DNA of 64,000 bases from an uncultured virus (IMG/VR IMGVR_UViG_3300001518_000020) (IMGVR_UViG_3300001518_000020), one strand, 5' to 3'. Counted from the first letter of the stretch, positions 1 through 56,300 are shown. Program-made: numbers and translations. Notes: generated by a model from the letters alone, not told the origin.

Positions 1-32
1 ATATGAAGATTGTTGTATTTGATTTCGGTGGT
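1..32 (+). CDS. dnaK: DnaK (Hsp70) exon 1, 3' end only (gene starts upstream of the window)
   Basis: The frame starting at 3 reads MKIVVFDFGG, the first half of the Hsp70 phosphate-2 motif DxGGGTxDxS. It joins in frame to GTHDVSIL at 757. Confidence 0.93.
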
Positions 33-756
33 AAACATCATGAAAACTGCCTCCGCGCTGCTGCTTAATTAAGTAGAAGTGTAAAATTAAAAACTTGTTA
101 ATTGCGGAGAACCCCACGTCTAAATAGATGAAAAGATAGCTCTAATTACCGCACTTGGTGGTGACATACAAGGTAGCAGATAGCTTAATTACTATTAGAT
201 GGTAAAAAGATTAGAGATTGGGCAACCGAACTAAGCGCAGCGAAGTTTCTTAGTAATAAGAAAAACGTTCAACGACTAGAAAAAGTAATCCTATCAAAAG
301 GACCAAATTTCCACGAATACAAGTTAATCTAAAATGGAACTTTTGATTTATATTTAAATAAATATAATTAAATTTATGAAAAGTTCTAATAAAGAGATCT
401 TTGACATTTTGGTTAAACATATATTAAAGATATTTGATGAAAATGATAATGAAATATCTTTTAATAATTTAGAACTTAAAGAAGAAAAAAGAAAATTCTC
501 TTCTAAATGTTGTAAATTATTATATATTGATAATATTTGTATTACTTCAAAACAACGAAAATCATATAAAATATTATATAAATGCCGTTGTGGTAGAGAA
601 AATAAAATATTATTACATAAATATATTAATAAAGATAAATTATTGTTTGACCAAGATATAGATGTTTTTATTAAAAACATTTTAGACGAAAGAGATAGTC
701 TAAACAACTGAGAGATTCAGTTGAAATTAAGATAAAGAGCTTAATGAATTATATTG
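33..756 (+). ncRNA. Group I self-splicing intron (IA-like) in dnaK
   Basis: The 5' exon ends in U32 and the intron ends in G756. P1: exon CGGUGGU (26-32) pairs with GCCUCCG (49-55), with a U32-G49 wobble. P10: ACAUCAUGA (35-43) pairs with exon 2 UCAUGAUGU (762-770). P element AAUUGCGGAGAA at ~100-111. R element GUUCAACGACUA at 267-278. S element AGAGAUAGUC at 691-700. P3 92-98/319-325, P8 328-336/678-686, P9 705-723. Confidence 0.93.
376..711 (+). pseudogene. Intron-encoded ORF in the P8 loop, probable degenerate homing endonuclease remnant
   Basis: 111 aa, starts inside the P8 loop and runs through the S element. It contains YKCRCG but no complete LAGLIDADG, GIY-YIG or HNH motif is visible. 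Confidence 0.5.
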
Positions 757-2115
757 GGTACTCATGATGTATCTATTCTTGATTTTGGTTCAGGTGTATT
801 TGAAGTATTAGCAACCGGTGGAGATACTCATCTTGGTGGTGATGATATTGATAATGAGATTATTAAGTATCTTACCGATGAGTTTAAGAAGGATAAGGGA
901 ATTGATTTGACAAAGGATGCTATGGCAATGCAACGTGTTAAAGAAGCTGCTGAGAAAGCAAAAATTGAGCTTTCATCTTCATCATCAACAGAAATTAATC
1001 TTCCTTATATTACTGCTAATAATGAAGGTCCTCAACATTTGGTAATGACACTTACTCGTGCTAAATTTGAACAACTTATTGATTCAATTATTAAAAGAAC
1101 AATTGAACCATGTCGTACAACACTTGAACAAGCTAAGCTTTCAACAAGTGATATTGATGAAGTAATTCTTGTTGGTGGTTCTACTCGTATTCCTGCTGTA
1201 CAAGAGGCTGTTAAGAATTTCTTTGGTAAGGAACCATCTAAGGGAGTTAATCCAGATGAGGTTGTTGCAATTGGTGCATCTATTCAAGGAGCTATTCTTA
1301 ATAAAGAAGAAGGTGTAGGTGATATTGTACTTCTTGATGTAACACCTATTTCTATGGGTATTGAAGCACATAATCAATTTGATCCAATGGGTCGTATGGC
1401 TAAGATTATTGAAGCTCAAACAACAATACCTTGTAAGAAGAGTCAAACATTTACAACAGCAGTAGATAATCAATCAGCTGTTACAATAGTAGTTCTTCAA
1501 GGTGAACGTACATATGCTAAAGATTGTAAGACCATTGGTACATTTAATCTTGAAGGTATCGCACCAGCTAAAGCAGGTGTTCCACAAATTGAAGTATCAT
1601 TTGATATTGATGCAAATGGTGTATTGAATGTATCAGCTAAGGATAAAGGTACAGGTAAAGAGCAAAAGATTACAATTTCTAACTCTAATCTTTCTGATGC
1701 TGAAATTGAAGCCATGAAGGCAGATGCAGAAGCTCACAAGGAAGAAGATAAAAAGAGAGAAGAGCAAATGAATAAACTTAATATGTCTCAAATGTTAGTT
1801 AATTCAATTGATCAAATGCTTAATGATGAAAAAATGAAAGATAAGATTACTGAGGAAGATAGAAATAATATTGTTCCAGCTAAGGATAATCTTGAGTCAC
1901 TTCTTAAGGAATATCAAAATACAGAAAACAAGGAAGATGCAATGCTTAAAATTGAAGAAGCTCAAAAGGCTCTTGAAGAAGCATGGAATCCTGTAGTTCA
2001 GAAGATTTATGCAGAACAAGCTGCTCAAGGAGGACAACCAGGAGGTAATCCATTTGGTGCAACAGGAAGTAATCCATTTGGAGATATGTTTAATGGAGCA
2101 CAAACACAACAATAA
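757..2115 (+). CDS. dnaK: DnaK (Hsp70) exon 2
   Basis: [45 protein letters not shown] and [13 protein letters not shown] motifs. The TTG start at 754 is an artefact of the intron end. Confidence 0.97.
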
Positions 2116-2188
2116 TATAAACTCTCAATAGGATTCTCTTGTAGAGTCCTTACAATAAATAAATTCAATAAAATTGGAGGTAATTATT

Positions 2189-2632
2189 ATGAAAAATGCT
2201 TTAAGTTTTTTTAAACCAACAAATTTGATTGGTTTTAATGATGATTGGTTTGATGATTTTAAAGATCCATTCTTTGGAATTTCTAAGACTTTTACCAATT
2301 CCCCTAAAGTAAATATTAAGGAAACTGATAAAGCGTATGAAATAGAAATTGCCAACCCTGGATTTACAAAAGATGAGACAAAGATTAAGATTGAAGATGG
2401 AGTACTTTATGTATCAATGATTTCTGAATCTAAAGAAGATAAAGAAGATGATCAAAAGTATCATTTACATCAATGGTCAAAATCTACTTATCATGAGTCT
2501 TGGAATCTTCCAGAAAATGTAATTGAAGAACAAATCAATGCTACAAACAAAGATGGAGTTCTTATTATTACATTACCAAAGAAAAATGAAGAACCAAAAC
2601 AAATTAAATCTAGAACAATTGAAATTGAATAA
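2189..2632 (+). CDS. Small heat-shock protein (Hsp20/alpha-crystallin)
   Basis: PKVNIKETDKAYEIEIANPG and A..KDGVLIITLPK motifs. ATG at 2189 is preceded by GGAGG (2176-2180). Confidence 0.92.
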   Translation: MKNALSFFKPTNLIGFNDDWFDDFKDPFFGISKTFTNSPKVNIKETDKAYEIEIANPGFTKDETKIKIEDGVLYVSMISESKEDKEDDQKYHLHQWSKSTYHESWNLPENVIEEQINATNKDGVLIITLPKKNEEPKQIKSRTIEIE

Positions 2633-2647
2633 TTTATTAAATTTAAT

Positions 2648-2673
2648 AAGGAGGATAGGATCCTATCCTCCTT
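2648..2673 (+). terminator. Intrinsic terminator (perfect 26-bp palindrome)
   Basis: AAGGAGGATAGGA/TCCTATCCTCCTT followed by a T-rich run. Confidence 0.7.
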
Positions 2674-2689
2674 TTATTTAAATTATTTT

Positions 2690-3775
2690 ATGGCTAAAGA
2701 TTATTATAAAATATTAGGTGTTGATAAAAATTGTGATGAAGCTGAGTTAAAGAAAGCTTTCCGTAAAAAATCAGTAGAATGGCATCCAGATAAATGGCAA
2801 GATAAATCTGATGCAGAAAAGAAAAATGCCGAAGAACAATTTAAACTTATTGCCGAAGCATATGAATGTCTTAAAGATCCTGATAAAAGAGCTCGTTATG
2901 ATCAGTTTGGTGAAAATTGGGATCAAATGGGTCAAAGTAGTGGATTTGATGGCTTTGATGGTTTTAGTGGTTTTGAAGATATTATGAAACATATGGGAGG
3001 TGGTATGTTTAATGATTTCTTTGGAGGTGGAAGACGACAAAATAGAGGACCACAACCAGGACAAACGGTACAAACTCAATATGAAATAGGTATTAATGAA
3101 ATATTTAATGGTCTTAATACTAAATTTGAATTTGAAGTTAATGGACGTTGTACATCTTGTAATGGTACAGGTGGTGAATCTGAAATATGTAGTCATTGTC
3201 ATGGTACAGGTGTAATAACAACTACACAGCGTACAACTTTTGGAATGATGACACAACAGTCTAATTGTCCATATTGTCATGGTACTGGTAAAATCATTAA
3301 AAAGAAGTGTCCAGATTGTAATGGTACAGGTATTAAACGAATTAAACGTAAAGTTAATTTAAATATTAAGCCATTTACACCAAATGGTCATGTAATGAAA
3401 TTTACTGGAATGGGTTATGAATCTAAAGATCCACATGGATTAAATGGTGATTTATTAATTCAAATTGTTTACAAAATCGATACTTCTAAATATGTTATTC
3501 AAGGTAATACAGTTTATGAAAAAATAAAAGTACCATATTATAATTGTATACTTGGTACAAAATTAGATGTTATATTACCAAATAATGAAAAAAATACAAT
3601 AGAAGTAAAACCATTATCACAAGAAGGAGATCAAATTGTATTAAATAACAAAGGTATAAATGGTGGAAATTATATTTATATTATTTCAGTAGATATGCCT
3701 AAACGCAGTATATCATCTAAATTGAATAATAAAGAAAAGGAATTACTTGAAAAAATAAAAGAACTTCATAAATAG
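2690..3775 (+). CDS. dnaJ: DnaJ (Hsp40) chaperone
   Basis: KDYYKILGV start, HPD motif, G/F-rich linker, four CxxCxGxG repeats. Confidence 0.97.
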   Translation: MAKDYYKILGVDKNCDEAELKKAFRKKSVEWHPDKWQDKSDAEKKNAEEQFKLIAEAYECLKDPDKRARYDQFGENWDQMGQSSGFDGFDGFSGFEDIMKHMGGGMFNDFFGGGRRQNRGPQPGQTVQTQYEIGINEIFNGLNTKFEFEVNGRCTSCNGTGGESEICSHCHGTGVITTTQRTTFGMMTQQSNCPYCHGTGKIIKKKCPDCNGTGIKRIKRKVNLNIKPFTPNGHVMKFTGMGYESKDPHGLNGDLLIQIVYKIDTSKYVIQGNTVYEKIKVPYYNCILGTKLDVILPNNEKNTIEVKPLSQEGDQIVLNNKGINGGNYIYIISVDMPKRSISSKLNNKEKELLEKIKELHK

Positions 3776-3799
3776 AGGGTTATTAAACTCTCTATTTTT
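3771..3799 (+). terminator. Intrinsic terminator after dnaJ
   Basis: AATAGAGGGTT...AACTCTCTATT stem followed by a T tract. Confidence 0.65.
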
Positions 3800-3839
3800 A
3801 TTTATTTTTATATATATAAATATATATTAATTTTTAGAT

Positions 3840-4577
3840 ATGACTATTCAAGAATTGAATGATAAATTTTCTAAATTTACAGGAATTCGTTCAGATATTG
3901 GTAAATTAATTGAAGGAGCCAGTACAAATGAAGAAAAACAAAAAGTATATGACCATTTAATGTGGCATTTAAGAAAAGGTCGTATTTTAGAACGTCCTTG
4001 GGATAAAGCATTATTTGAAGCAATTGTACCTGCACTTCAAGAAAAATTAAATATAGAATCTTCTGTAGTTGAAGAAATAGAAGAAAAAGAAGTTTATACA
4101 GCAGAAGAAGCTGCTGCTTATAATTTAACACTTGATGGTGCTTTACAATATGGTGCAATTAAGACTCCTGCAGTAGAAGTAGTTGAAGCTAAACCAGCTA
4201 TTTATTCATTCGCTTCATTTAATGTAGATACTGATGCTCCTTATGGCGTTGGTACTGTAAAAGTTATTAGTCAAGATTTACAAGAAAATGTTACAACTGT
4301 TGAAGTTTTAACTAATGAACCTGCTGGTAATACAACAGCTGAAGAAGCAGCAGAATTTGTAGGTAAGCAATACTTTGTACATGATACTGTATTAGAAGCT
4401 AATAAACATTATAATTTATACACAGGTATACAAACACCTATTTATGTAACAGTTGAATTAGTTAGTGATGCAGTAGAAGGTGTTGAAGCTCAAGATGCAG
4501 TTTCTTATACTAATGAAGAAGTAGATGCTTATAATGCCAAATTAACTGGTGCGAAAAAAGCTGGTGATGAAAAATAA
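3840..4577 (+). CDS. Hypothetical acidic protein with an internal repeat, possibly virion-associated
   Basis: 245 aa. YTAEEAAAYNLTLDGA resembles YTNEEVDAYNAKLTGA. Preceded by a TTATTTTTA motif. Confidence 0.7.
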   Translation: MTIQELNDKFSKFTGIRSDIGKLIEGASTNEEKQKVYDHLMWHLRKGRILERPWDKALFEAIVPALQEKLNIESSVVEEIEEKEVYTAEEAAAYNLTLDGALQYGAIKTPAVEVVEAKPAIYSFASFNVDTDAPYGVGTVKVISQDLQENVTTVEVLTNEPAGNTTAEEAAEFVGKQYFVHDTVLEANKHYNLYTGIQTPIYVTVELVSDAVEGVEAQDAVSYTNEEVDAYNAKLTGAKKAGDEK

Positions 4578-4599
4578 TAATAATAATTAATATAAAAAT

Positions 4600-4632
4600 A
4601 ATGGATTGGATCACATGATTCAATCCATTTTT
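4600..4632 (+). terminator. Intrinsic terminator
   Basis: AATGGATTGGATCA..TGATTCAATCCATT followed by a T tract. Confidence 0.7.
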
Positions 4633-4673
4633 GTTTATTTTTACTATATTAATAAAATAAATATTATCAAAAT

Positions 4674-4940
4674 ATGTTACCAGGATTTATAACTTTATTT
4701 CGAGATAATGATAATTTAATACACCTTTATTTTTATAAAGGTTTAACTGACGATAATACTTTTTATTATAATGATTTAGATTTATCTGCAATTGAGAAAA
4801 ATGGTTATACATATAAAATTATTACATATGATTCATTTACTAAAGAATATATATTTGATAATAAAAACATTACCGGAATGACTTGTAAGTTAATTTCATT
4901 TAATGGTAAAGAAGAAATTAAAAGATTAAAAATAAAGTGA
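4674..4940 (+). CDS. Hypothetical protein
   Basis: 88-aa ORF with a CTATATT motif upstream and a hairpin downstream. Confidence 0.6.
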   Translation: MLPGFITLFRDNDNLIHLYFYKGLTDDNTFYYNDLDLSAIEKNGYTYKIITYDSFTKEYIFDNKNITGMTCKLISFNGKEEIKRLKIK

Positions 4941-4962
4941 TAGATTCCGAAATCTATCACTT
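4935..4962. terminator. Terminator between convergent genes
   Basis: AAGTGATAGATT-CCGA-AATCTATCACTT stem-loop. Confidence 0.65.
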
Positions 4963-4986
4963 AAATTTTATTTGGAATATAAATAA

Positions 4987-7344
4987 TTATAATTCATTTA
5001 GTTGTTCTTGTGTTAATTGTGTAAATGAAATAATTATATTTTTTGCTATACTAGTTATACCCATACTAAATGATAAAGTACCTAATTTAACATAATTATA
5101 AACACTAGTAATATTTTTAGTAACTAATATAATTTTATTACCTTTATATAATACTATATCACCAATATTTAATTGTTTAGTTAATGATGATTTATCATTA
5201 TTATCTGTATAAATTTTTTGATTTAATTCAACTTCATATCCAAATCCTTCTTTATTTATTGTTAAATCTAATTGATTAATATTTTCAAAATAATCTAATA
5301 ATGAATTACCACCTACATTATCAATAATATTTGCTATATGTATAGGAGATTCATTAAATATATCTTCTATCCAACCATTAATATTATCTTCATAATATAA
5401 ATATAATTGTTTTTTATAAGCATTTGGATCTAATGAATATTCAAATTTAATTGGTTTAGAATTTGATGTATATTTTCCTGTTTCCATAATTTCATCACCA
5501 AATACATCTCTTAATGATAAATATTCTTTACGAGTTAAATCACTTCCTTTTATACCAATTATACCTTCAAATCTATTAAGACCTAAATATTTAAATTTAA
5601 GTAATGTATTAACATTAAAGTTATTAAAATTAATACCAACTAAATTGGTATTTTGAATAATACCTGCATGTAATACATCAGTATTATTTAAATTAGTATT
5701 TTCTAAAGCATTTATCCATAATTCTACAAAATTTTGTACATTTAAACCTTCACCATCAATATTTTCTAATGTTAAATTAATTAAATTACCTGTTGGAGTA
5801 TATTCAAAATGATTAATTGTGTTGTTTTTTAATACTAATGTTTTTAATGTATCAGGTAATGTAATATTATTAAATTTATTATTTGAATGTGGTATAAAAT
5901 TCTTAATATTTGAACCTTTTGCTTTAAATTCATTTAATTGTGTTAATTTACTAATAGAAAAATCTTTACGTAAATTATTACAATTAGTAATATCAATCTT
6001 TTTTAATGTTGTTAATTTATTTATACCATTAATATTTTCAACACCTGATTGTTTTTCATTATTACCAATAATAATATTTTCTAAATTTATATTTGTTTCA
6101 TTAATCCAATTAGTATTCTTTACATTATATATATCTAATTTTTTATTATAATTATTAATTAAATTAATGTTTGTGATATATTCTGTTTTATTAGATAAAT
6201 CTAATGTTTTAATATTTGAAGGATTAATAACTTTAAATATTTGATTTTCTTCTAAAATATCTTTATTAGTAATATTAAAATTATGTGTGTTATTAATTTG
6301 TATATCTGATCCACATGGCATATCATGTTCATTAATAATAACATTAAACCAACTTTCTTTTGTAGGTTCAATACTTAATAATTTATCATTAATATTTAAA
6401 TTATTAGTATTCATTGTGAATGCTATTGAATTATCAAACCAATTATCGTAATTATTACTAAAATTAAAATATGCGTACAAATTCTTTGATGCTAATGAAT
6501 ATGTATTTAATGTAAGTGTTAATACAGTATCTAAATCAGAAATATAATAAGTTTTTAAATCATTATATTTATTTTCAACACTATTTGTATTATTATCAAA
6601 GAATGTATTAATACGATTATTTAATTCATTTATATCATTAAGTTCATATGTATAGAATGTTTTAGTTTCTATATATGTTATACCTGTATCTCTGTAAGCA
6701 ATTGTACCATCTGCTAAAGTATAAGGTTCCATATATGATCTAGTATATTGTTCATCATAACTTAATGTTGTAAATTTATAATCAACAAATTGTCTACTAA
6801 AATCATATGATTTAAATCCTGTTTCAGAATATTCATCATTAACTGTTATAATTGTGTTTGCAGGATTATATGGATATTTTTTATGTGCATATGATACTTC
6901 TTTTAATTCAATATTGTTTCCATAATAATGTTTTTTATTAAATGTCATATCATTTACATTTAATAACAAATCAATTAATTGTGAAGCTGGAATAATTTTT
7001 GTATTATTAAAATCATTATTCAAATCAGTTTCATATTTATAATTAAATGTTAAAATGTTTTTATTAATATTTATATCAACAATATTATTTTTGAATTTAT
7101 TCATATATGAAATAGTAGCATTTATAATATCACCAATATTATAATAGTTTGTAGGATTTTCACTAAATGTACTATTTGATATACCATTCCAATATGAATT
7201 ATTATCTCTACTTAATGTAAGATCTCCATAATAATCACTATGTACACCATATCTTCTATTTTCTACTGATTCTCCACCTTTTACTGCATCTACACCAGTG
7301 TAAAAATTAATATTAGGTAAATTAGATACTGTTATTGTTGTCAT
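4987..7344 (-). CDS. Leucine-rich-repeat protein with a C-terminal cyclophilin-like domain, putative virion/tail protein
   Basis: LRR-like LTTLKKIDITNCNNL..LTQLNEFKAKGSNI..ITLPDTLKTLVL. The C-terminal GDIVLYKGNKIIL..YNYVKLG resembles the cyclophilin-like family. Confidence 0.6.
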   Translation of the reverse strand: MTTITVSNLPNINFYTGVDAVKGGESVENRRYGVHSDYYGDLTLSRDNNSYWNGISNSTFSENPTNYYNIGDIINATISYMNKFKNNIVDININKNILTFNYKYETDLNNDFNNTKIIPASQLIDLLLNVNDMTFNKKHYYGNNIELKEVSYAHKKYPYNPANTIITVNDEYSETGFKSYDFSRQFVDYKFTTLSYDEQYTRSYMEPYTLADGTIAYRDTGITYIETKTFYTYELNDINELNNRINTFFDNNTNSVENKYNDLKTYYISDLDTVLTLTLNTYSLASKNLYAYFNFSNNYDNWFDNSIAFTMNTNNLNINDKLLSIEPTKESWFNVIINEHDMPCGSDIQINNTHNFNITNKDILEENQIFKVINPSNIKTLDLSNKTEYITNINLINNYNKKLDIYNVKNTNWINETNINLENIIIGNNEKQSGVENINGINKLTTLKKIDITNCNNLRKDFSISKLTQLNEFKAKGSNIKNFIPHSNNKFNNITLPDTLKTLVLKNNTINHFEYTPTGNLINLTLENIDGEGLNVQNFVELWINALENTNLNNTDVLHAGIIQNTNLVGINFNNFNVNTLLKFKYLGLNRFEGIIGIKGSDLTRKEYLSLRDVFGDEIMETGKYTSNSKPIKFEYSLDPNAYKKQLYLYYEDNINGWIEDIFNESPIHIANIIDNVGGNSLLDYFENINQLDLTINKEGFGYEVELNQKIYTDNNDKSSLTKQLNIGDIVLYKGNKIILVTKNITSVYNYVKLGTLSFSMGITSIAKNIIISFTQLTQEQLNEL

Positions 7345-7366
7345 ATATTATTATTTATTATTTTAT

Positions 7367-9916
7367 TTATATTACGGTAATATCACATTTATCAGATATG
7401 TTAGTATCAAGTGTTCTTACAAATATTGATGTTTCTCCACTAGATACTGCTGTAATGTTACCATTTGAATCAATAGTTGCAATATCAGGATCTAATGAAG
7501 TGAATTCTACATTTTGTAATGACGTATTATCAGGAGTTACTGTTGCTATTAATGTATATGATTGATCGACATTCAATGTCAAATTATAATCAGATAACAA
7601 TAATTGAGAAGATGGAACAGTAACAATAACATCAGCACTAGCAATTATACCACTATTATCAGTTGCTGATGCATATACTTTAATCTTACCTTCTTTATGA
7701 GCAGTTATTTCACCATTATTATTAATAGATGCAATTTCACTATTTGATGTATACCAAGCTAATTGAGTTACATTTGCTCTATCTGGGAAGATTTGATAAT
7801 TTCCACCATTAATAGTTTCTCCTTTTCTAAATGCATAAGTACTACCAACATGTAAATTAATTGTCTTTTCATTAAATACAATATCTGTAATTAATACTAC
7901 ACATGTAATATCACAAGTTGCATATACACCTGAACCATCTTCAGCAGTAGCAGTAATAACTACATCACCACCACCAATACTTCTAACTAAACCTGTATCT
8001 GATACTGTGGCAATATTTGTATTGCTTGATGTCCATATAATATTTTTATTATCTGCATTCTCTGTTACCGATGCATTTAATTGTAATGTATCACCTAAAT
8101 CAATAGTAGCATTTGTCTTATCTAATGTAATATGACGTATAGGCATTTTACCAATGATATTAAGATATTTTACAACATTTGATCCATCACTTGGATAAAT
8201 TGTTATAGTACCATTAGTTTTAGTTGACATATAAATTTGACCATCGATACCATTGTCAGCAACACCTGCATTAATATTATCATTATCTGATTCCCAAACA
8301 AGTGATTTATTTGAAGCATTTTCAGGTAATAATGTTACAGGTATTTGTGTAGGTATACCAACCAATATATCTGTTGTATATGTTGTTTCGTGTGTTTCTG
8401 GATTAGTTTCTCCTTCAATCATATTAAATATAATATCGCTAATTGCTGTATCAACTATAACATCAATTCGACTAATTTTACCAGAACCATCAGCTGCTTC
8501 TGCTAATATTGTTGCAGTATCACCAGCTTTTAATAATGTAATTGTACCATTTTGATCTACTGTTGCTACATCAGGTTTATTAGATGACCATATAATTGTT
8601 TTATTAGAAGCAGATTTAGGTAATACAGTATAATTAATTGTTGTAGTATAACCTTCAAATGCTTTAATAGATGATGTATTAAATTGTATACTATCAACAT
8701 ATGTTATAACATTAACATAAATGTTAGCATAAATTTCTGGATTTTCTTGAGAATAAATTTTAATAATAGTTTCACAGTTATTTTCAAGAGCCATGATACG
8801 ACCATCTTCAAATACCTTTATCTTAGTTTCATCATATTCAATACAAATAGGAGAATTAAGATAATTAGTAGGTTGAATATTAATACCTTTTGTATATATA
8901 CTATTAATAGGAATTGTAATATGATCATTTCCATCAATAGATATAGATGTAATAGGTCTATGAAGTATTACGATTTCTTCTTCTTTTTGATCTTTAGATA
9001 TATCTGCAGGATCATCATCACCTTCTAAATTAGATATTAATATTGATTTTTGATCTTCATAAGTTGATGTAAATTCTAAATCAATCCAAATAGGTTTAAT
9101 AATTGGTGTATATTGATATTCAGAATTTACAACTTCACCAGTAATTGGGTCTGTTTCTGTAATTACAAGTTTACGAGTATAATAAGTTTTTTCATTATCA
9201 GGATTTAAATATAAATCATTCCAGATATCGAAATTAAGAACTTCTTGATATGTATCATTATCAAGTTTAATATAATAAGTTTCACCTCCTTCATCTTCAT
9301 ATGTCCAATATTTAACATATGTCTTATAAGATTTAGTATCTTGATGAACTAATGCTACAGCTTGATTATTATTGGTTGTAACAAATTCTAAATCAATAAA
9401 AACTTGATGAATATCGTTTGGACGACCATTTTCATCAAATTCATCATTAAACATTAATTGATATTCTTCATCACTTATAATCTTTTCAGCTATAGAACGT
9501 AAAAAGTCTTCCATTAACTTACCACGATATGCACTCCATACCGCAGTTGGATCATTAGTTTCATCATCATTAACAATTACAAGAGCATCATCTGCTCTAT
9601 TTAACATTGTTTGTTTATCAAATGAATTACCTTTGTAACCTTTTTCACCTATTTCACCTTTATTACCTTTATCACCATCTTCACCATTATATACTGTGAA
9701 ATATTGTGATTTATTTGTATCAAAATCTAACTTTATAACATTTTTACGATTACCTTCGTTAGCTTCAATTTCTTCAGAATGAATAATTTGATCACCTTTA
9801 ATTTGGCCTAATTCGACATAGTAATTTTTCTTGTTATGAGCTAAAATTGTTTTACCACTTTGAAGTAATTTATTTAATAAAGGAAAATCTGATAATCTAA
9901 TTATTTTTTGTATCAT
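7367..9916 (-). CDS. Ig-like (Big_2) repeat protein with a short collagen-like segment, putative tail fibre or decoration protein
   Basis: Repeated P.NA.NK.I.WxSS..IATV..G.I units. GEDGDKGNKGEIGEKGYKG forms a G-X-Y run. Confidence 0.85.
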   Translation of the reverse strand: MIQKIIRLSDFPLLNKLLQSGKTILAHNKKNYYVELGQIKGDQIIHSEEIEANEGNRKNVIKLDFDTNKSQYFTVYNGEDGDKGNKGEIGEKGYKGNSFDKQTMLNRADDALVIVNDDETNDPTAVWSAYRGKLMEDFLRSIAEKIISDEEYQLMFNDEFDENGRPNDIHQVFIDLEFVTTNNNQAVALVHQDTKSYKTYVKYWTYEDEGGETYYIKLDNDTYQEVLNFDIWNDLYLNPDNEKTYYTRKLVITETDPITGEVVNSEYQYTPIIKPIWIDLEFTSTYEDQKSILISNLEGDDDPADISKDQKEEEIVILHRPITSISIDGNDHITIPINSIYTKGINIQPTNYLNSPICIEYDETKIKVFEDGRIMALENNCETIIKIYSQENPEIYANIYVNVITYVDSIQFNTSSIKAFEGYTTTINYTVLPKSASNKTIIWSSNKPDVATVDQNGTITLLKAGDTATILAEAADGSGKISRIDVIVDTAISDIIFNMIEGETNPETHETTYTTDILVGIPTQIPVTLLPENASNKSLVWESDNDNINAGVADNGIDGQIYMSTKTNGTITIYPSDGSNVVKYLNIIGKMPIRHITLDKTNATIDLGDTLQLNASVTENADNKNIIWTSSNTNIATVSDTGLVRSIGGGDVVITATAEDGSGVYATCDITCVVLITDIVFNEKTINLHVGSTYAFRKGETINGGNYQIFPDRANVTQLAWYTSNSEIASINNNGEITAHKEGKIKVYASATDNSGIIASADVIVTVPSSQLLLSDYNLTLNVDQSYTLIATVTPDNTSLQNVEFTSLDPDIATIDSNGNITAVSSGETSIFVRTLDTNISDKCDITVI

Positions 9917-16926: not shown

Positions 16927-17334
16927 TTAAAAATTTTCAAATTTCATATTATAAACACCAAATGGATTTTCAACTGTTAGATTCAATGTTTCAATAAGTT
17001 TATCTATATCCATTCCAGGTTTTACTTTAATCTTAACACTCAATCTAATTTCTTCATATTCTCTTTTAAGGTTTCCAATTTCTTCATCCCAAATAAGATG
17101 ATTCTTCTTAAGATCTTTGATGAACTGATTTTTCTCGTCTTCGGAAGCAATAGAAATATTATCATCAAAAATAAACTTATGAGGTCTAATTTGTGGAAAA
17201 TTATAATCATTCGTATAAACAAAATATGATCCAACTAAATAAAAACATGTTGCCCCATTATATGTTTCTTTAAGAACCGTACCAACCTCTAGTGGTTTAT
17301 TCAAATATTCATTAATTATTTTTTCCATATTCAA
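16927..17334 (-). CDS. Hypothetical protein
   Basis: About 135 aa, directly downstream of the repeated promoter element. Confidence 0.65.
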   Translation of the reverse strand: MNMEKIINEYLNKPLEVGTVLKETYNGATCFYLVGSYFVYTNDYNFPQIRPHKFIFDDNISIASEDEKNQFIKDLKKNHLIWDEEIGNLKREYEEIRLSVKIKVKPGMDIDKLIETLNLTVENPFGVYNMKFENF

Positions 17335-34248: not shown

Positions 34249-36834
34249 TTAACAATCTCCCATTATACTTTGACCTATATGATCTAATCGTTGTTTAAAT
34301 TCTTTTTGTTTACCTTTATTAAAATGTTCTATAGTTGTGCTCAAATAGCCAGTTATACGACCCAATTTAACAATATCTTTACAACCACATTTTGGACATT
34401 CTTCTAAATTTTCATCATGAATAGGTTCACCACATTTTGCACAACGATTAAGAGGTATGTTTAATGCAAAATAAGGAATATCGTGATCCATAGCATAATC
34501 AACTATCTTTTCAATTGCATCTATATTATTTACACATGTTGAATCTAACTCTACATAAGTAATACAACCAGCATTTGAATATCCTGTAAGTTGGCTTTCA
34601 AGATCAATCTTCTTAAATGCATCACAATTATAATAAACAGGAATATGTATAGAATTGGTAAAATATTCTTTATATTCTTTTTCTCCATTTGAATTAATAA
34701 AATATGTTACTCCTTCTAAATCATATTCTGGATATGCTTTACGGAACTTATTAAATGATGTATAACAAAGATTCTCGGCAGGAGTATAATAAACACCAAA
34801 ATTAAGTTTATATTCCTTTTTGAATTCAGATGTTCTATCTAAGAATAATTGCTCAATCTTCTTAGCATATTCCATCCCTTTTTCTGTTGTATGATCATAA
34901 CCAAACAATAAATAAAGTGTTTCTGACATACCTATTTGACCAATAACTAATGTACCATGCTTAAGTGCAGATATAATTCCTTCTTCTTCATGATATCCAG
35001 CCATTGTATGATTTTCATACATATAACGAGCTGATTTATATGATTGTGAACAAATATGATTGAAACGTTCAAGTAACATATCTTTAGCTTCATGAATTTT
35101 CTTATCTAAAAGTTTCATAAATTCATTGAACATTTCTTCTTGAACTTTACCAAAGTCTACAGTAATACCTTCATATTTCTTTTCAATTTTCTTACGAACC
35201 ATCGCGGCAAGAGTTGGCATAATAATAGTTGTTGGGGCAATGTTTCCACGACCATCTTTTATAACACCTGAGAATACATCATCTATATCATCATATCTTC
35301 CATCTATAATACATTGAACATTTCTCTTAAAGTTATCAAATGCATTGATATCAAGACCATTAACTGTACGACATCCCATCGTGCTAAAATATTCAATAGG
35401 ACGTTCATTCATATCTATTTTAATAGATCCTTCGTTAAATATAGGCTCTACATATAATCCAACTTTTTCCATACATTCATCTTGATTTTGTTGAATCATA
35501 TACCAAAGCTTTTTATAAGATTCTTTATCAAGTGAATTGATATACTCTTGTTTTTGTTTTCTATCAGCTTTAAACCAATTAACTTGATTAGACCAGTCAC
35601 AATTTGCATAATTAGGATATATACGCATAGCTGTAGATTTAAGTGCTAAACGCTTCAAGTCATAATTAGGTGTACCTGGTTTATCATTAATTCCTTTTTT
35701 ATATTGGAAAATACCACATGGGAATATTGATGTAACACCTTTTTTACCAAGACCTTCCATAGAAACTTCTAAAAGTGCTTTGATAACCATACGTCCTTCA
35801 AGTTCTGTACAAGTACCATAATTGATAGAAGAGAATGGAAGTTGATTTCCTGAACGGGATTGGAGAGTATTTAAATTGTGATACATTCCTTCAACTGCTT
35901 GATATGTCTCTTTCTTTGTATCAAATAATGCTTTTTGTCTAATCGTCTTGTCTAATTTATCATTTGCAAAATAAAAATCTTTATCTTCTAATTTAGTTTC
36001 TAAATAAAACTCTGTTACCATATTTTCAACCCAATGTTTAAATTCATCATAAGTAAGTCCTAAAACATCAAGCTCTAAAAATTCCGGACGTTGTTCTATC
36101 CATTGTGATATATAATGTTTACGATATGATTTACGAACATAAGGTACCATAGTCCAATCAATATGAGTTGCGGCTACACCACCAAATTGTTGTAATGATT
36201 GTAATTGGAAGTTAACAGCTACCAATTGCATTGCTGTATTAACTGAACCTGCAGGACGTACATCAGTTTGTCTTGTTATAACACCTTTTTCAAGTTTATC
36301 ATCTAATGGGTGTGATAAGCAATTATGATCACCTACTAACCAATGATCTGCATCATGAATGTATACCATATTTCCTTCATGATTTCTACGACCCATCTTA
36401 GACATTTTCTTTAATGCTCTATCTTTAGCTACAACACCCGATGTTTCACCTAAACGACCACCAAATGATTGTTCATCTAAGTTGGCATTTTGATTTTGAA
36501 CATTTGTAGCATTAAGCTTCTCTGTAATTTGCTTCATTAAATCAGATTTCTCTTCACGACATTCTTCTCTTTTTTGTCTATACTTAATGAAAGATTCTAC
36601 AACTTCATATTTATTACGCTTAATAAGCTCTTTTTGTATACAATCTTGAATTTCTTCAATTGGAGTACCTGATCCATTGTTTTTGATAATAAGCTTTTCA
36701 ACCGATTCCTTTAATTGTTCCAAAAACTTCTCAGGAACTTCTTGTTCAACAGATTTAAATGCTTTATCGACAGCATCAGCAATCTTAATAAAACTATATT
36801 CCTGAGGTGTACCATCTCGTTTAATTATTGTCAT
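34249..36834 (-). CDS. nrdD: Anaerobic (class III) ribonucleoside-triphosphate reductase
   Basis: ATP-cone IIKRDG, MGCR, GRGN, TPAE, YFTNS.H, Zn-ribbon CxxC..CxxC and glycyl-radical RITGY. Confidence 0.97.
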   Translation of the reverse strand: MTIIKRDGTPQEYSFIKIADAVDKAFKSVEQEVPEKFLEQLKESVEKLIIKNNGSGTPIEEIQDCIQKELIKRNKYEVVESFIKYRQKREECREEKSDLMKQITEKLNATNVQNQNANLDEQSFGGRLGETSGVVAKDRALKKMSKMGRRNHEGNMVYIHDADHWLVGDHNCLSHPLDDKLEKGVITRQTDVRPAGSVNTAMQLVAVNFQLQSLQQFGGVAATHIDWTMVPYVRKSYRKHYISQWIEQRPEFLELDVLGLTYDEFKHWVENMVTEFYLETKLEDKDFYFANDKLDKTIRQKALFDTKKETYQAVEGMYHNLNTLQSRSGNQLPFSSINYGTCTELEGRMVIKALLEVSMEGLGKKGVTSIFPCGIFQYKKGINDKPGTPNYDLKRLALKSTAMRIYPNYANCDWSNQVNWFKADRKQKQEYINSLDKESYKKLWYMIQQNQDECMEKVGLYVEPIFNEGSIKIDMNERPIEYFSTMGCRTVNGLDINAFDNFKRNVQCIIDGRYDDIDDVFSGVIKDGRGNIAPTTIIMPTLAAMVRKKIEKKYEGITVDFGKVQEEMFNEFMKLLDKKIHEAKDMLLERFNHICSQSYKSARYMYENHTMAGYHEEEGIISALKHGTLVIGQIGMSETLYLLFGYDHTTEKGMEYAKKIEQLFLDRTSEFKKEYKLNFGVYYTPAENLCYTSFNKFRKAYPEYDLEGVTYFINSNGEKEYKEYFTNSIHIPVYYNCDAFKKIDLESQLTGYSNAGCITYVELDSTCVNNIDAIEKIVDYAMDHDIPYFALNIPLNRCAKCGEPIHDENLEECPKCGCKDIVKLGRITGYLSTTIEHFNKGKQKEFKQRLDHIGQSIMGDC

Positions 36835-50322: not shown

Positions 50323-53300
50323 TTAAACTGCTAAACTTGGTCCAAATAAGCAATAACTTAAGAATGATGGATTCATCTTACGATTGCTATGATCAACAGC
50401 ATTTTGATTATTTAATTTATATACCATATCTGGAGTACTACTATTTATATCATGTGCAACTTGAATATTTTCTTTATTAGAACCATTTATATCTCCAGTT
50501 GTATCAGGATTAGGAGTATCATAATACCAATACATTTTACTATGTTTATAATCAGTATATGAATAAATTCCTGTATATAAGTTATCAAAATCTCTTCCTT
50601 CTGTTCCTTCTGGTAGACTACTATTAAAATAAAATTTACTCTTATCAAATAATTTAGTAGATAATTGACCAGTTTTGTCTAATTCATCTAAGAATTCTTT
50701 AAATACATTATAATTATTCATTACATTCATATAATCTTTTGAAGATAATGGTTTACATACCATATTTGATATACCTAATTTCTTATAATCATTAATATAA
50801 TAGAATATCATATTACTATCTGAAATAGTAGATGTATTAGAGAATTTAATTTCTCCTCTACGATATGCATTACATAATCTTTCAATTTTTTGTTCTGGAT
50901 CAGACATAGCTTCAGAAATATCAAATGTACCAACTGATTGTAATGTAAATATACCACCATCAGCACCATTACGTTTACCAGCAGAAATTATTCTATAATA
51001 ATCATACCATTTAGAATATAAATAACCATCAGAATATCTTTCATAATGTGTAGTATCATGAACAAATGTATTTGGTTCATCTAATAATAAATGGAATGCA
51101 TATTGATTATTAAAGTTGATTCCATAAGATTCATCATTATACCATGTACTATCTGTTGACCACCACATATATGCTTCTTGTTCAGATGCTAATTTCCATG
51201 GATCTAATGATGTATATGTACGTGTTCCTTTATCATTAAGATAAACATATACTAAAGCAATGAAATATTCTTTAATATTTGTTATAACGTATGTTTGTTG
51301 CTTATAACCTGCTAAATCATATAAATTCAAATTCTTATCTAAGAAGTATAAACATTCTGCTGGAGTATTTTCATTTTCTCCGAATGCTTTAATATCAGAT
51401 GAATTTATATTGAAGTTAGTTGTTAATGCAGCTGTACGTTCAACATGAATATCTTTATCTAATGTTGTTTTAATACCATTAAATGATACTGAATATTGTA
51501 ATTTAGTTGAAGCAGAGAATAAATTACTTTTTGTTGATTCTAATAAACTAAAACTAAATGTATGTGATTTATCATCTGTAGTAATTATACCATTATTAGT
51601 AATGTATTCTTTTAAGTTTGGAGTTTCATTAATTGTTGTAAATGAATCTGTAGATAATGTTGAATAATTAGCTTCAGGATATTGTTCATTTGATAAGAAT
51701 TGAACAGTTCCATTATTATACTTTTTAGTAATATTATCTGAATTACCCCAAACATATTTTACATTGTTAATTTCACTATATGTATGTAAATCATATTTAA
51801 TTGTTGGCATTACTTGAGATAATAATATTGAATTCTCTGAACTGTCAGAAGTATCAAATTCAGTAACATTATTAATAGATGTAGACTTAATAAGATTAAT
51901 ACCATCTGGTAAGAAATAACCTAATATTACATTAACCTTCTTAGTAGTAACATTATCATAAACGTCTTTAATAACAATATTAAATTCACCAAATTGATAC
52001 ATAGATTGTTTAGCAACAGGTAACTCAATATCAATTGATTCAATCACATTTTGTTTAATTATTGAATTATTTGGAATAATATTATATTTTACAAATATTC
52101 CTTCTGGAACAACAATTTCCATTGATTTAACTGGAACATTATATTCAGCAGGATTAATATTAACTTGATAATGATATGAAACAATTTTTTGTGTTCCTTT
52201 TGTTTTAATTTCAGATTCAGATTTTACATATTGTTCAATAGTTAATTCATGTTCTTCATTTTCTTCTAATACTTCATTATTATATACTAATTGTATATCA
52301 TTAATTTTCTTAGTATTAAGATTTACATTAATTAATGAAGTCAATACTGTGTTTTGTTTATCTCCAAGATGTACAAATACATATAATGTGATTTGAGTAT
52401 TATCATTTTGAATATTTGGTAAATATTTAATAATATATTTACCTAATTCGTTATCAAATTCAACATTAAGTTGTCCAAATTCATTATTACTAATAACTGT
52501 ATTAGAATTAAATGAAGCTTCAACACTAGTAATATCAACATTTATTGGTTTTTCAATATCAAAAGTTAATTTATATTGATATTCTTTAATTTCATCAATT
52601 GTTTGTGTTGTAATTACAGGATCACCATTTGAATTTATAATTACAATATTATCTGAATTAGGTTTAACTAAGTTTTCAATATTAATTATTGTATTAGCAA
52701 CTGATTGACCTGGAAGTAAACTATCTGTTACATTAATTTCAATTGATTTATTAGAAGTATCTGTATATTCATAAACATCTAATATAGCTGTACCGTTATC
52801 GTTTGTTAAATATGATTGAGTAGCACCTTGATAAAATGTATTGAAATAAACATTATTAGTTTTATTCCAAACTGTCATTTTGTTATTAGCAGGATTAACA
52901 GATGCAGGAATAATATTAATAATACGTTCATTATTAATTGGGAAAATAGTTGCAGTTATTTTAACCTTTTGACCAGCTAAAACAGTATATGCTTCACCAT
53001 CATAAACAGGTTCTTTACCATTATCATATCCTGTAACTGTTAAGAATACTGAACTATTACTATCAAAGTGGAATGCTGCGTCTGAACGGAATGTTGAATC
53101 TTCCCAAAGTTTCTTAACATCATTAAATTTAGAAGTTGTCATTTCTTCATAATTTTCTTGTGTTAAACCACCATTTGGATTATCTCCATAAAGTTTGATA
53201 ATACCTTTATTAATAACGAAGTTTTCTACACCCATATTATTAAGACCAAAATCTCTCTTAATAGCATTTAATAAATCAAGTGACTTAATCTTCTTAGTAG

Positions 53301-56300
53301 CTGCAGAAACATTTGGATTTTCTTTAGGTATACTATCTAACCAAACATTAACATCTTCAGCTAAATCACCATCAATATTACCATAATATTGTTCAAGTTC
53401 AATTGTATTGAATGATAATGAGCATGAATAATCAGACATTCTTACATCATATTTCTTAAGCATTATATACCAGTTAAGTATAAATTCAAATAGTTTATGT
53501 CCTTCAAATGCATTACCGCTAACATTTTCAATTTCAACTCTTGTTAATGCAACTGATGGAGTAAATCTAAATTCATCAACAGAAACACCATTTAATTTTA
53601 ATGTTGAAACTGAACTTGGTAATGAAACTTCTTCTAACATAACACCTTTAGCAGGTATGAAACTATTAATAGAAGAACCATCAGCTAAGAATTTAGTAAG
53701 GTTACCTAATTGAGAAATATCAATAGATTTCATTAATGAACATGTTCTAATATCTAATACTTTAAGTGTCTTTAATCTATCAATTTGAGATATACCTTGA
53801 ACAGCACATCCAGGTATTTCTGAAATTGGTTTATCACCACCTAAAATAAGTTCTTCAATTAATGAACCTTTTTCAGGAGCCCAGCTACATGTAAGTACTT
53901 GTCCTAAACCATTACGATTAACACTAAAGTCAAGAACTTTAGCTTTATAAACACCATACATTTGCATTGGGTTACCAAGAATAAGAGTATCAACTGTTTC
54001 GAACATATGTTCTTGACCAGCTTCAAGTTCTACAAAGTTATTACCTAATATATTATTATTAGAAATAATTGAGTAATAGAATTTAGAACCAGCAACTATT
54101 CTTAAGAATGGTTGTTTATTACTTGGAGAAGCTTCAAGACCCATATAGAAGTCTAAACGGTTTGTAGCATATTCACCAGCTGACCATTTAGAATCATAAA
54201 GATCGAAACGGTGTCTTAACCACCAATCACGGTGTGATGCACGAGAACCTTGTAAGAATGGAAGATACTTAGTATTTTGATATGGATTATATGAAGCAGT
54301 ACCTTCATTATCTATATCATTATATGTTCCAATATACTTATACATTTCTGATTGGTTATAAAGTCTTTCTGACCATGTACCTGATTGTTTAACGTTAAAC
54401 ATATCAAGCGCAATATCATAAGTAAGTACATTAGATGTTACCATTGCAGTAGCAGCCTTTTGAACTTTATCTAAGAAATCTGGATCTTGTTCAAGTGTAT
54501 TCCAAAGAACTGAACCGAAACCAGCGAATGCATAAGAACCAACTGATTCATCATATGTTTCACGAGTAACTTGCCAATCATATGCTAAGTAACCATCATT
54601 ACGAACACCAAGTACAGTATCATTATCATAGTTGATAAAGTAATAGTGTTTAGCATCTTCTGTTGTCATCATAGTATTCTTAATAACTTGGTCAACACCA
54701 GCAAATCTCATTAAGTATACATAGTAACATGCTAATTTCCATACATCAAAGTGTTCATATTTTTGATCTTGGAAATATTCAAATTTAGTCTTTCCTTTGA
54801 ATGAAGTACCTTTAGAAACCTTTTCACCAGTACCTGTAACAATTGTTACTTCTTCACCCGATGCATAAGGTACTGTCTTACCCATTTCATCAACATATGT
54901 ATAGTTATTACCATTCTTAGTTAAGTAAACTGTTACCCATGCATTTGGATGTATTTGTTCTCTTTCTGAATTCATACGTTTACCATCATAAGTAAATACA
55001 CGACCAGTATATACTTCATCCTTCATTGGAGTTGTATTAATTGTCTTTGTAACAATTGTACGATCAAATGTCTTATCAATATAATACCATTGTCTAATTT
55101 CATCAGTAGCATTTGGGTACCAATCCATAGCTTCATATGAAATTTCATTTGGATCATCACTTTCTTCAATAATATATACGTATGGAGTACCTGAATTTAA
55201 TACATCATAAATACGTTGAATCATTAAATCTTGATTAGTTTCATTTTCACTATATAATGGTTCCATTGATCCAGTACTTGTAGCAGTAACTTGTGATGCA
55301 TAAGTTTGACGATAATAAACAATTAATTTACCTTTTTTATAAAGATTAGCTTTAGCAGCTTCTATATCCATTAATGTTGGTTTACCTGTATTATCATCAT
55401 AAATTATAGCACCATCTGAATCTGTAGCATAGAAATTAGCTGTCTTATCTTTTGGAGACATCATTGGAACAGAAAGATAAAGTGTTTTATTTGGTAATGA
55501 ATTTAATATTGATTTATCTTCAAACCATTCTTGAGCTGTTAAATCATCAAGTTTAGTAAAATCGCTTAATTCATAACCATCTTTATCTTTACCTGGTTCA
55601 CCAACACGAACACTTACAGCATCTTTACAGAAATTAACGAAACGAATAACTGTTTCTAAGTGATCTGTACGAGTATCATTTAAGTCATCATTATCTGGCC
55701 AACGAGCTTCATAAGTCTTAAAGATAGGACGATCTTCATTATTAGCTTCACCTGGTGTATAATCAACAGTAGAACCATCAACATTATCAGTTGTAGCATC
55801 ATTCATTTGAGCTAAACGAGAACCGTTTTGAAGACATTCCCAACATTCTGTACGTTGATCATCATTACCAGCATTGAATAAAGTATTACCATCTTCGTCT
55901 TTAAGATCTTCAAATCCAAATAAAGGAGTAGAACCTTTATCAGTCATAATGTTATAAAGACCTAAGAATACTGGATCACCATATTCTTCTGTAAATTGAT
56001 TATTATCATTTTTGATACGAGGACGGTTAATAATAATAATTGGATAACCATCACAAGATGTTCGAATATCACCAAATACTAATTTTTGAGATACATTATT
56101 AATAGTAATTGTCTTATCTTTGTGAGATTCATCATATTCTTGCATAGCACGTTGAGCATTAGTAGCACCAGGTTTAGATGTCATGAATTTATTACCATCT
56201 ACATCATATGTGAAACCTTCTGTACCAATTTCAACATCACGCATTACATCACCCCAAAGTCTACCAACACCAGCATTATGTGTCATAGAAGACTCTGCAT

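Follow-up and report, generated by a model that had tools for sequence, protein, structure and literature searches.

The 64,000-nt stretch of phage DNA analysed here (the window) carries a group I intron at positions 33-756, inside the DxGG|GT ATP-binding loop of the dnaK gene of a huge gut bacteriophage. Exact removal of the intron from the transcript was shown by RNA contigs from two studies, although an intronless allele identical over exon 2 would look alike. The element is very probably a selfish, splicing-competent group IA intron that is late in its homing cycle and has lost its mobility here.

Frame 3 of the window (ATG at 3) reads MKIVVFDFGG up to base 32, meets its first in-frame stop at TAA 66-68, and restarts at 757 with GTHDVSIL. 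Removing the intervening 724 nt restores the DxGGGT loop of DnaK, which in Hsp70 proteins we take to bind the phosphates of ATP. The last exon 1 residue of a homologous locus corresponds to residue 202 in a human Hsp70 chain. The features, all on the + strand, are:

1-32, last part (3') of dnaK exon 1, ending …DFGG; in contig L043 the full exon spans 196 codons
33-756, group I intron of class IA, 724 nt, from core motifs, covariation and an RNA joint 32->757 that skips 724 nt
26-55, P1: 26-32 with the internal guide 49-55; its loop, 33-48, is the P10 guide
56-81, P2, containing the first in-frame stop (TAA 66-68)
92-325, ribozyme core, P3 to P3', including P4-P5-P6 and the P7 5' strand
92-98/319-325, P3
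103-107 with 227 and 236-239, P4, with an 8-nt insertion (228-235) in its 3' strand
113-116/219-222, P5; 117-216, P5 extension
240-268, P6/P6a
272-278, P7 5' strand, with bulged C273, then G274
279-311, extra stem between P7 and P3': outer 279-282/308-311, inner 289-292/299-302
328-686, P8: 328-336/678-686, 9 bp; its loop bears an ORF
376-711, remnant of a Zn-ribbon and PD-(D/E)XK nuclease, 111 aa, with an in-frame internal deletion of ~253 codons
636-642, deletion junction
688-756, J8/7 and 3' end: P7 3' strand 696-701, P9 705-723, P9.1 726-745, terminal G756
757-2115, dnaK exon 2, 452 codons (PF00012, E 4.5e-144, from profile position 196 of 599)
2174-2632, Hsp20 gene, downstream neighbour of dnaK (PF00011)
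2690-3775, dnaJ gene, downstream neighbour (PF00226, PF00684, PF01556)

The preliminary description of this DNA implied an N-terminal half of dnaK upstream of the window. This half is present in L043, a 473,900-bp contig in which dnaK starts at 1570 and 2126-5342 is 100% identical to window 1-3217; L043 may be the window's own source, and is used as context that adds no independent support. Besides dnaK exon 2, hsp20 and dnaJ, the window encodes a sigma-factor domain, nrdD, a gp32-like protein, a helicase, a lysozyme, a tail tube and a tail sheath, and the phage is therefore a T4-like huge phage. It does not belong to the Lak phages, as its genes read well with table 11 and its tail sheath shares only 27-31% identity with the sheaths of Lak, PAU and pT24. 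Its relatives suggest a Bacteroidota host. The nrdD gene (34249-36834, - strand) is a single open frame of 861 aa, intron-free, which exceeds the Pfam model and is matched in two stretches. Beside the tail tube and sheath genes lies an ORF of 2,937 aa (50323-59136, - strand), 2.7 kb of whose DNA is matchless among phage records. A promoter scan was at chance level (20 vs 21.7), and no second intron of the same family was found in the 64-kb window.

Intron fold and removal from the transcript

The intron follows U32 and its terminal base is G756. P1 forms six of its seven pairs, the exception being a U-U mismatch, and has the U32-G49 wobble at the splice site. Twelve of the 13 homologues in the alignment show this U-G wobble; the other, L018, is aligned with an offset. 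The 9/9 pairs of P10 (35-43/762-770) keep the register of the wobble G, and the helix can be followed further, to 46-48/757-759; its target in exon 2 is 757-770. The P10 duplex has a predicted energy of -13.1 kcal/mol, a value reached by none of 5000 guide shuffles. In five of the eight lineages compared, the guide's own exon 2 was its best partner or came within 0.2 kcal/mol of it; this preference was absent in L036, L034 and L085. The P3-P7-P8 core is present, with a guanosine site (a bulged base, then G-C) and the J6/7 and J8/7 motifs, and P3 and P7 form 7/7 and 5/5 pairs. P8 was read directly from the sequence, and an ORF-less homologue (L011) closes the same stem.

We base the structural claim on covariation, because MFE folding of 24-345 was weakly better than that of shuffled sequences (z -2.05). 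Thirteen distinct homologous introns were aligned, all of which start after U, end in G and occupy the same codon. In this alignment 96.5% of 715 cells were paired and 27 of 55 pairs changed on both sides. None of 500 shuffles equalled this pairing and covariation, and slid controls paired at 36-46%, controls that are favourable since the structure was drawn from the window's own sequence and the rows are related. Two-sided changes occurred at 5/7 pairs of P3, and P4, P5, P5b, P6 and P6a were 88-100% paired, each with a two-sided change. The most telling evidence is a change that spans exon and intron: where the last codon of exon 1 is Cys in place of Gly, the guide follows, and G30-C51 becomes U-A (5/13 homologues). 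Thus the coordinates, helices and splice sites of the preliminary description, including the wobble P1, G756 and P10, were all borne out.

Rfam searched at gathering score gave no match in the window. RF00028 aligned to 90-291 (model 47-158) with 16.5 bits and E 0.16, far under its 50-bit cut-off, which is a library threshold and no feature defining group I introns. In this covariance-model search, of the kind proposed in the preliminary description, the alignment fell on the correct J3/4-P4, P6 and P7 motifs. This model has been described as missing phage variants (PMC11878797). It also gave sub-cut-off matches in two related genomes, at 4720-4948 and 17079-17290 of G001 (the genome of L002) and at 82142-82433 of G002 (the genome of L018).

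Class IA introns are defined by an extra paired segment between P7 and P3. The extra stem of the window intron showed two-sided changes at 4/4 outer pairs (279-282/308-311), which supports its assignment to group I, class IA, as first proposed from the extra sequence between P7 and P3. Subgroup IA2 is defined by two separate hairpins, P7.1 and P7.2, whereas one nested stem was seen here; the intron is assigned at the level of class IA, above the subgroups IA1, IA2 and IA3.

In 15/15 introns the first in-frame stop fell at intron nt 22-37, which is past the guide and within P2 or next to it, despite changes in the length and frame of L1. Unspliced RNA would yield a DnaK fragment of 207 aa. The insertion in the P4 3' strand, 8 nt in the window, is longer and hairpin-like in Lak and in L036/L038, and is missing in L042/L044. 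A possible 7-bp hairpin between P8' and P7' (681-687 with 698-704) would compete with the core; a 99% identical copy of the intron in sequencing run X17 has T at 687, within this hairpin. TTG at 754-756 was considered as an internal start for exon 2 and rejected, the simpler reading being two U of P9.0 followed by the terminal G.

Sixteen public RNA runs hold part of the window stretch. The evidence for splicing comes from assembled contigs, on the RNA side only, in which the exon 1 side of the joint has just 30-32 letters. The 32->757 joint was present in all four runs compared with the window: X1 and X2 (RNA, one sample), X3 (RNA, another study) and X17 (library type unrecorded). In X1, one contig joined 1-32 to 757-2200 with 0 differences (depth 28.7), and a second, unspliced contig covered intron positions 54-317 with 0 differences (depth 2.84). 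X2 gave a spliced contig with 0 differences over 757-1650 (depth 12.9) and an unspliced one, 3-318, that crosses the 5' splice site with 0 differences (depth 5.09). The spliced contig was therefore the deeper in both runs with both forms, contig depth being a poor measure. The joined contig of X3 had 0 differences over 757-2200 (depth 108.2). X17 may be DNA and a mixture of strains, and the joint there is also as expected from intronless relatives. The spliced junction looked for after the preliminary description is thus present in RNA contigs of two studies.

The ORF in loop L8 and its nuclease family

The 111-aa ORF of the window intron (376-711, + strand), which the preliminary description overlooked, lies in loop L8 and runs through P8' and P7'. 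It keeps just residues 1-90 and 339-364 of the 364-aa protein of a relative (L030), and the deletion took the catalytic residues, so that the catalytic motif is absent. Seven letters at the deletion junction fit both sides, a microhomology. In X17, one record of the intron (record 3) spans 3-642 and then runs on into the ORF segment that is missing here, and another (record 4) begins at 636. The window, Lak-B4, L011 and L287 have each lost the ORF independently, and no second, intact copy of the nuclease was found within the 64-kb window.

Relatives of the intron, those of Lak B and C phages among them, bear an intact nuclease of 350-376 aa in loop L8; in L002, for example, the same intron has an ORF of 373 aa. 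The intact protein (P0001) has 35 relatives of 205-653 residues. No Pfam families matched P0001; in the wider family PF08722 matched 16/33 members and PF05367 8/33, all weakly, and phrog_15137 ('endonuclease') matched intact relatives with E 5.7e-8. The structure model of the intact nuclease had a pLDDT of 87.5, and its last ~120 residues resembled TnsA (Z 8.2, rmsd 3.0 over 105 residues), VRR-NUC and I-Bth0305I (Z 7.3). A Foldseek search gave no match at E<=0.001, and a PDB sequence search with the nuclease profile gave a best E of 0.19. Eight Cys, Q261, S262, E265, D299, E310 and K312 were invariant in 17/17 full-length members. From the modelled fold and these residues, the intact relatives are predicted to be PD-(D/E)XK nucleases, with a restriction-type fold and a D…ExK catalytic motif.

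In their C-terminal ~120 residues the intact relatives would share the fold of the Tn7 TnsA N-terminal domain (PF08722, 1t0f), T7 endonuclease I (PF05367) and I-Bth0305I (3r3p), with invariant QSxxE, D and ExK. They differ from these PD-(D/E)XK-fold nucleases in their N-terminal ~245 residues, which contain four invariant Cys pairs and have no clear match to a solved fold, and the window copy differs further in having no nuclease domain. The EDxHD motif marks homing endonucleases of the I-Bth0305I type. We rejected this type for the family: E…D…ExK is invariant in its members but a His-Asp pair is not, and the likeness is one of fold.

Close members of the family go together with dnaK. Of 47 loci fetched with a family member, 21 were close (E<=1e-40) and 26 distant. 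dnaK was present at 20 of the 21 close loci, with the nuclease inside this intron in 17 (several of them near-copies of Lak B) and free-standing upstream of dnaK in three, the remaining contig being too short; it was found at none of the 26 distant loci. In L039, the free-standing nuclease gene (2493-3563) lies immediately upstream of a dnaK (3724-5526) that is intronless and has its loop altered to DSGNGT. Translation of this nuclease gene with table 15 reads through its single in-frame TAG. The dnaK ORF of L032 (1613-3106) runs into unrelated sequence after ~residue 128 and is possibly an assembly chimera, and the dnaK sequence of L040 ends at residue 41.

Distribution among phages and giant viruses

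Intronless dnaK alleles, for which the preliminary description had suggested a comparison among related phages, do occur. One of them, L001, has 91% nucleotide identity to exon 2 of the window; it differs by 8.5%, including two letters in the first two codons. Among 15 Lak records, DnaK is in one piece in five (A1 four times, and A2) and split in ten (B1-B9 and C1), all ten of which match the intron; four of the 15 (B1, B4, C1 and A1) were inspected. Among the best 80 of at least 512 viral dnaK loci, 77 were intact, one (L085) had a homologous intron and two were cut short.

On a DnaK tree of 38 rows (15 intron-bearing and 23 intronless, 20 of the latter hand-picked from the 77 intact loci), intron presence needed 7 changes, 6 of them forced by strong branches. 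Shuffled labels needed a mean of 12 changes, so presence is clustered, and much of the pattern may therefore reflect inheritance and loss rather than recent homing. L001 nests among intron-bearing alleles. Some identities were discordant: L085 has 69% in DnaK and 60% in the core, and L041 has 54% in DnaK and 75% in the core. These sequence comparisons fit lateral movement together with loss, and date neither.

An exact 22-nt pattern run over genome_contigs in search of a bacterial chromosomal copy gave one match, to a 410-kb phage contig; being a single pattern, it does not imply absence from bacteria. This contig (L013, ONIZ01000001.1, 410,106 bp) is the phage contig of L002, filed in a bacterial MAG, probably through a binning error. 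Downstream of dnaJ, L002 has at least four tandem genes (7008-9320) of short 'W-D-V-S-N-V' type repeats.

Two pattern scans gave at least 236 loci, at least nine of them with Hsp70. Two of these, L210 and L313, are giant-virus MAG contigs with a homologous core at the same Hsp70 codon as in the window, and the L313 exon is closest, among solved structures, to cytosolic eukaryotic Hsp70. Their nucleases are homologous as well (E 5.9e-41 and 4.5e-45; 31-33% identity to L030). Codon, core and nuclease are thus common to phages and giant viruses. In L205, a related short intron at 1843-2187, on the reverse strand of the locus, interrupts an Hsp70 of eukaryote type at a different site, near residue 221-224. 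Six or more related group I cores lie within ~6 kb of one 33-kb contig (L200-L202).

The megavirus and moumouvirus HSP70 genes also carry a group I intron, and the moumouvirus copy is without an endonuclease ORF (Yoosuf et al. 2012, PMC3542560). The parallel with the window and its relatives is close, as a viral Hsp70 is split by a group I intron whose endonuclease ORF is kept by one of two viruses but gone from its counterpart. In contrast, the window is from a bacteriophage with a DnaK of bacterial type, and the two cases are likened by description, not by insertion codon or nuclease family.

Persistence of the intron and its meaning

Group I chemistry and homing theory suggest how such an element would work. 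The internal guide pairs with the end of exon 1 (P1) and the start of exon 2 (P10). Free guanosine bound at G274-C700 would attack U32|A33, and ligation at G756|G757 would then join the exons, with or without help from protein. An intact nuclease would cut intronless hsp70 alleles at or near the insertion codon, and repair would copy the intron in. The Hsp70 site would be favoured because it is the most constrained stretch, where escape mutation and imprecise loss are both untolerated; group I introns are reported to prefer conserved sites (PMC2814812). The window intron would no longer be able to spread by itself. It may persist because only exact removal leaves a working dnaK, at a cost that would be low, or largely neutral, since splicing removes it. 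The early stop suggests a coupling to translation that is not stress-specific, of a kind discussed for other bacterial and phage introns (PMC3984707).

Could the insertion simply be dead, with dnaK a pseudogene and the joined RNA contigs derived from a co-occurring intronless allele? Intronless alleles exist (L001), the joined form is found in X17, RNA libraries can contain DNA, and the ORF in the intron is already broken. However, up to 1,444 nt of exon 2 are covered by the joined RNA contigs without a single difference, compared to 8.5% for L001, exon 2 is open throughout its 452 codons, P3 and P7 are 100% paired, and the core is 93-97% identical to those of L002 and L030. We regard this explanation as extremely improbable. 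It is also very unlikely that the intron is a domesticated regulator, whose splicing responds to temperature, stress, the level of GTP or translation and so gates phage DnaK. The host gene is a stress chaperone adjoining hsp20 and dnaJ, the ribozyme has been retained after nuclease loss in several lineages, the conserved early stop means that ribosomes would cross P1, and introns have been proposed as GTP- or translation-dependent switches, citing the behaviour of T4 (PMC11878797). In the window strain the predicted P1 probability was 0.04 at 25 °C and had risen to 0.31 at 45 °C (60 nt of exon). This rise was not conserved, as P1 mostly fell or stayed flat in seven other homologues, and the predicted values depend strongly on the extent of exon folded. 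Further, close relatives are intronless (L001 and Lak-A), as are 77 of the best 80 viral dnaK loci, and the spliced contig was the deeper in both two-form runs, on that poor measure. The preliminary description had supposed that dependence on ribozyme folding could make DnaK synthesis stress or temperature sensitive; patchy presence, the repeated decay of a homing-type nuclease and the lack of a conserved temperature dependence of P1 in eight homologues speak against it. No published thermosensor intron was found in the literature searched.

A further reading concerns alleles with an intact nuclease rather than the window copy: the nuclease would be a weapon directed at intronless dnaK, whether in co-infecting huge phages or in the host, with the intron protecting the gene of its own carrier. 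This can hold alongside the selfish-intron reading, and we consider it unlikely. The free-standing family members directly upstream of dnaK in three loci would fit, as would the altered loop of the intronless L039 dnaK, which is as expected for self-protection, and the invariance of the catalytic residues in 17/17 full-length members; such interference has been described between PhiPA3 and PhiKZ (PMC11878797). Against this, repeated loss of the nuclease, including in the window, fits neutral decay, and a whole neighbouring dnaK is visible in L039 only, given the chimeric-looking L032 and the truncated L040. A broader and similarly doubtful proposal is that one Hsp70-specific mobile element, comprising the class IA ribozyme and the Zn-ribbon/TnsA-like nuclease, moved between phages and giant viruses and used the conserved phosphate-loop DNA as one homing site, with the nuclease also acting as a weapon against the intronless hsp70 of rivals or host, and the intron or an altered loop shielding the carrier.

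The window intron is close to known phage elements. The T4 genes td, nrdB and nrdD carry class IA group I introns. With the introns of T4, of Bastillevirinae (PMC11878797) and of Jug phages (PMC12880540), the window intron shares the core, the extra P7-P3 helix, a peripheral-loop ORF that enters the core and an early in-frame stop; splicing in metatranscriptomes is a further likeness to the Jug introns (37/76; PMC12880540). It differs in its host gene, a chaperone and not a nucleotide, replication or packaging gene, in the single nested stem of its P7-P3 extension, in the insertion in its P4 3' strand, and in a nuclease family that is neither HNH nor GIY-YIG. As in collaborative or intronless homing (PMC3984707), one family holds an ORF-less intron (L011), intron-borne nucleases and free-standing ones, although the target site of the present nuclease is a predicted one.

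That a chaperone gene is an unusual host among phage introns, as the preliminary description remarked, agrees with PMC11878797, according to which the split genes of phages belong mostly to nucleotide and DNA metabolism. The available text of the Jug paper reports 2,513 group I introns and leaves dnaK unnamed (PMC12880540), and that of two accounts of phage chaperones describes them without introns (PMC12619734, PMC7824862). In the Lak papers (PMC6784885, 10.1101/356790, PMC8346664), Lak-A1 is listed with an intact dnaK, and no intron in a protein gene was found in the text available. General background is given in PMC11835236 and PMC11043551. We found no published phage dnaK intron in the literature, mostly outside subscription papers; the supplementary listings of PMC3542560, PMC11878797 and PMC12880540 may hold one.

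An intron in a viral Hsp70 gene is as such not new (megavirus and moumouvirus, PMC3542560). What is new is that the host gene in phages is a chaperone, that there is RNA evidence, and that a nuclease family bound to Hsp70, so far uncharacterised, is shared with giant viruses. Phage group I introns have been known almost only from nucleotide, replication, packaging and virion genes, which fed the idea of metabolic switches (PMC11878797). A spliced intron in a chaperone gene fits better with the view that any highly conserved site will do. Related genomes hold all the states, namely intronless, intron with nuclease, intron without nuclease and free-standing nuclease, and so offer a testable case. 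In practical terms, dnaK is split in 10 of 15 public Lak records, where it is likely annotated as fragments. Finally, that phages have this nuclease family in common with giant viruses, whose Hsp70 genes are of eukaryote type, is relevant to gene flow between the two groups.
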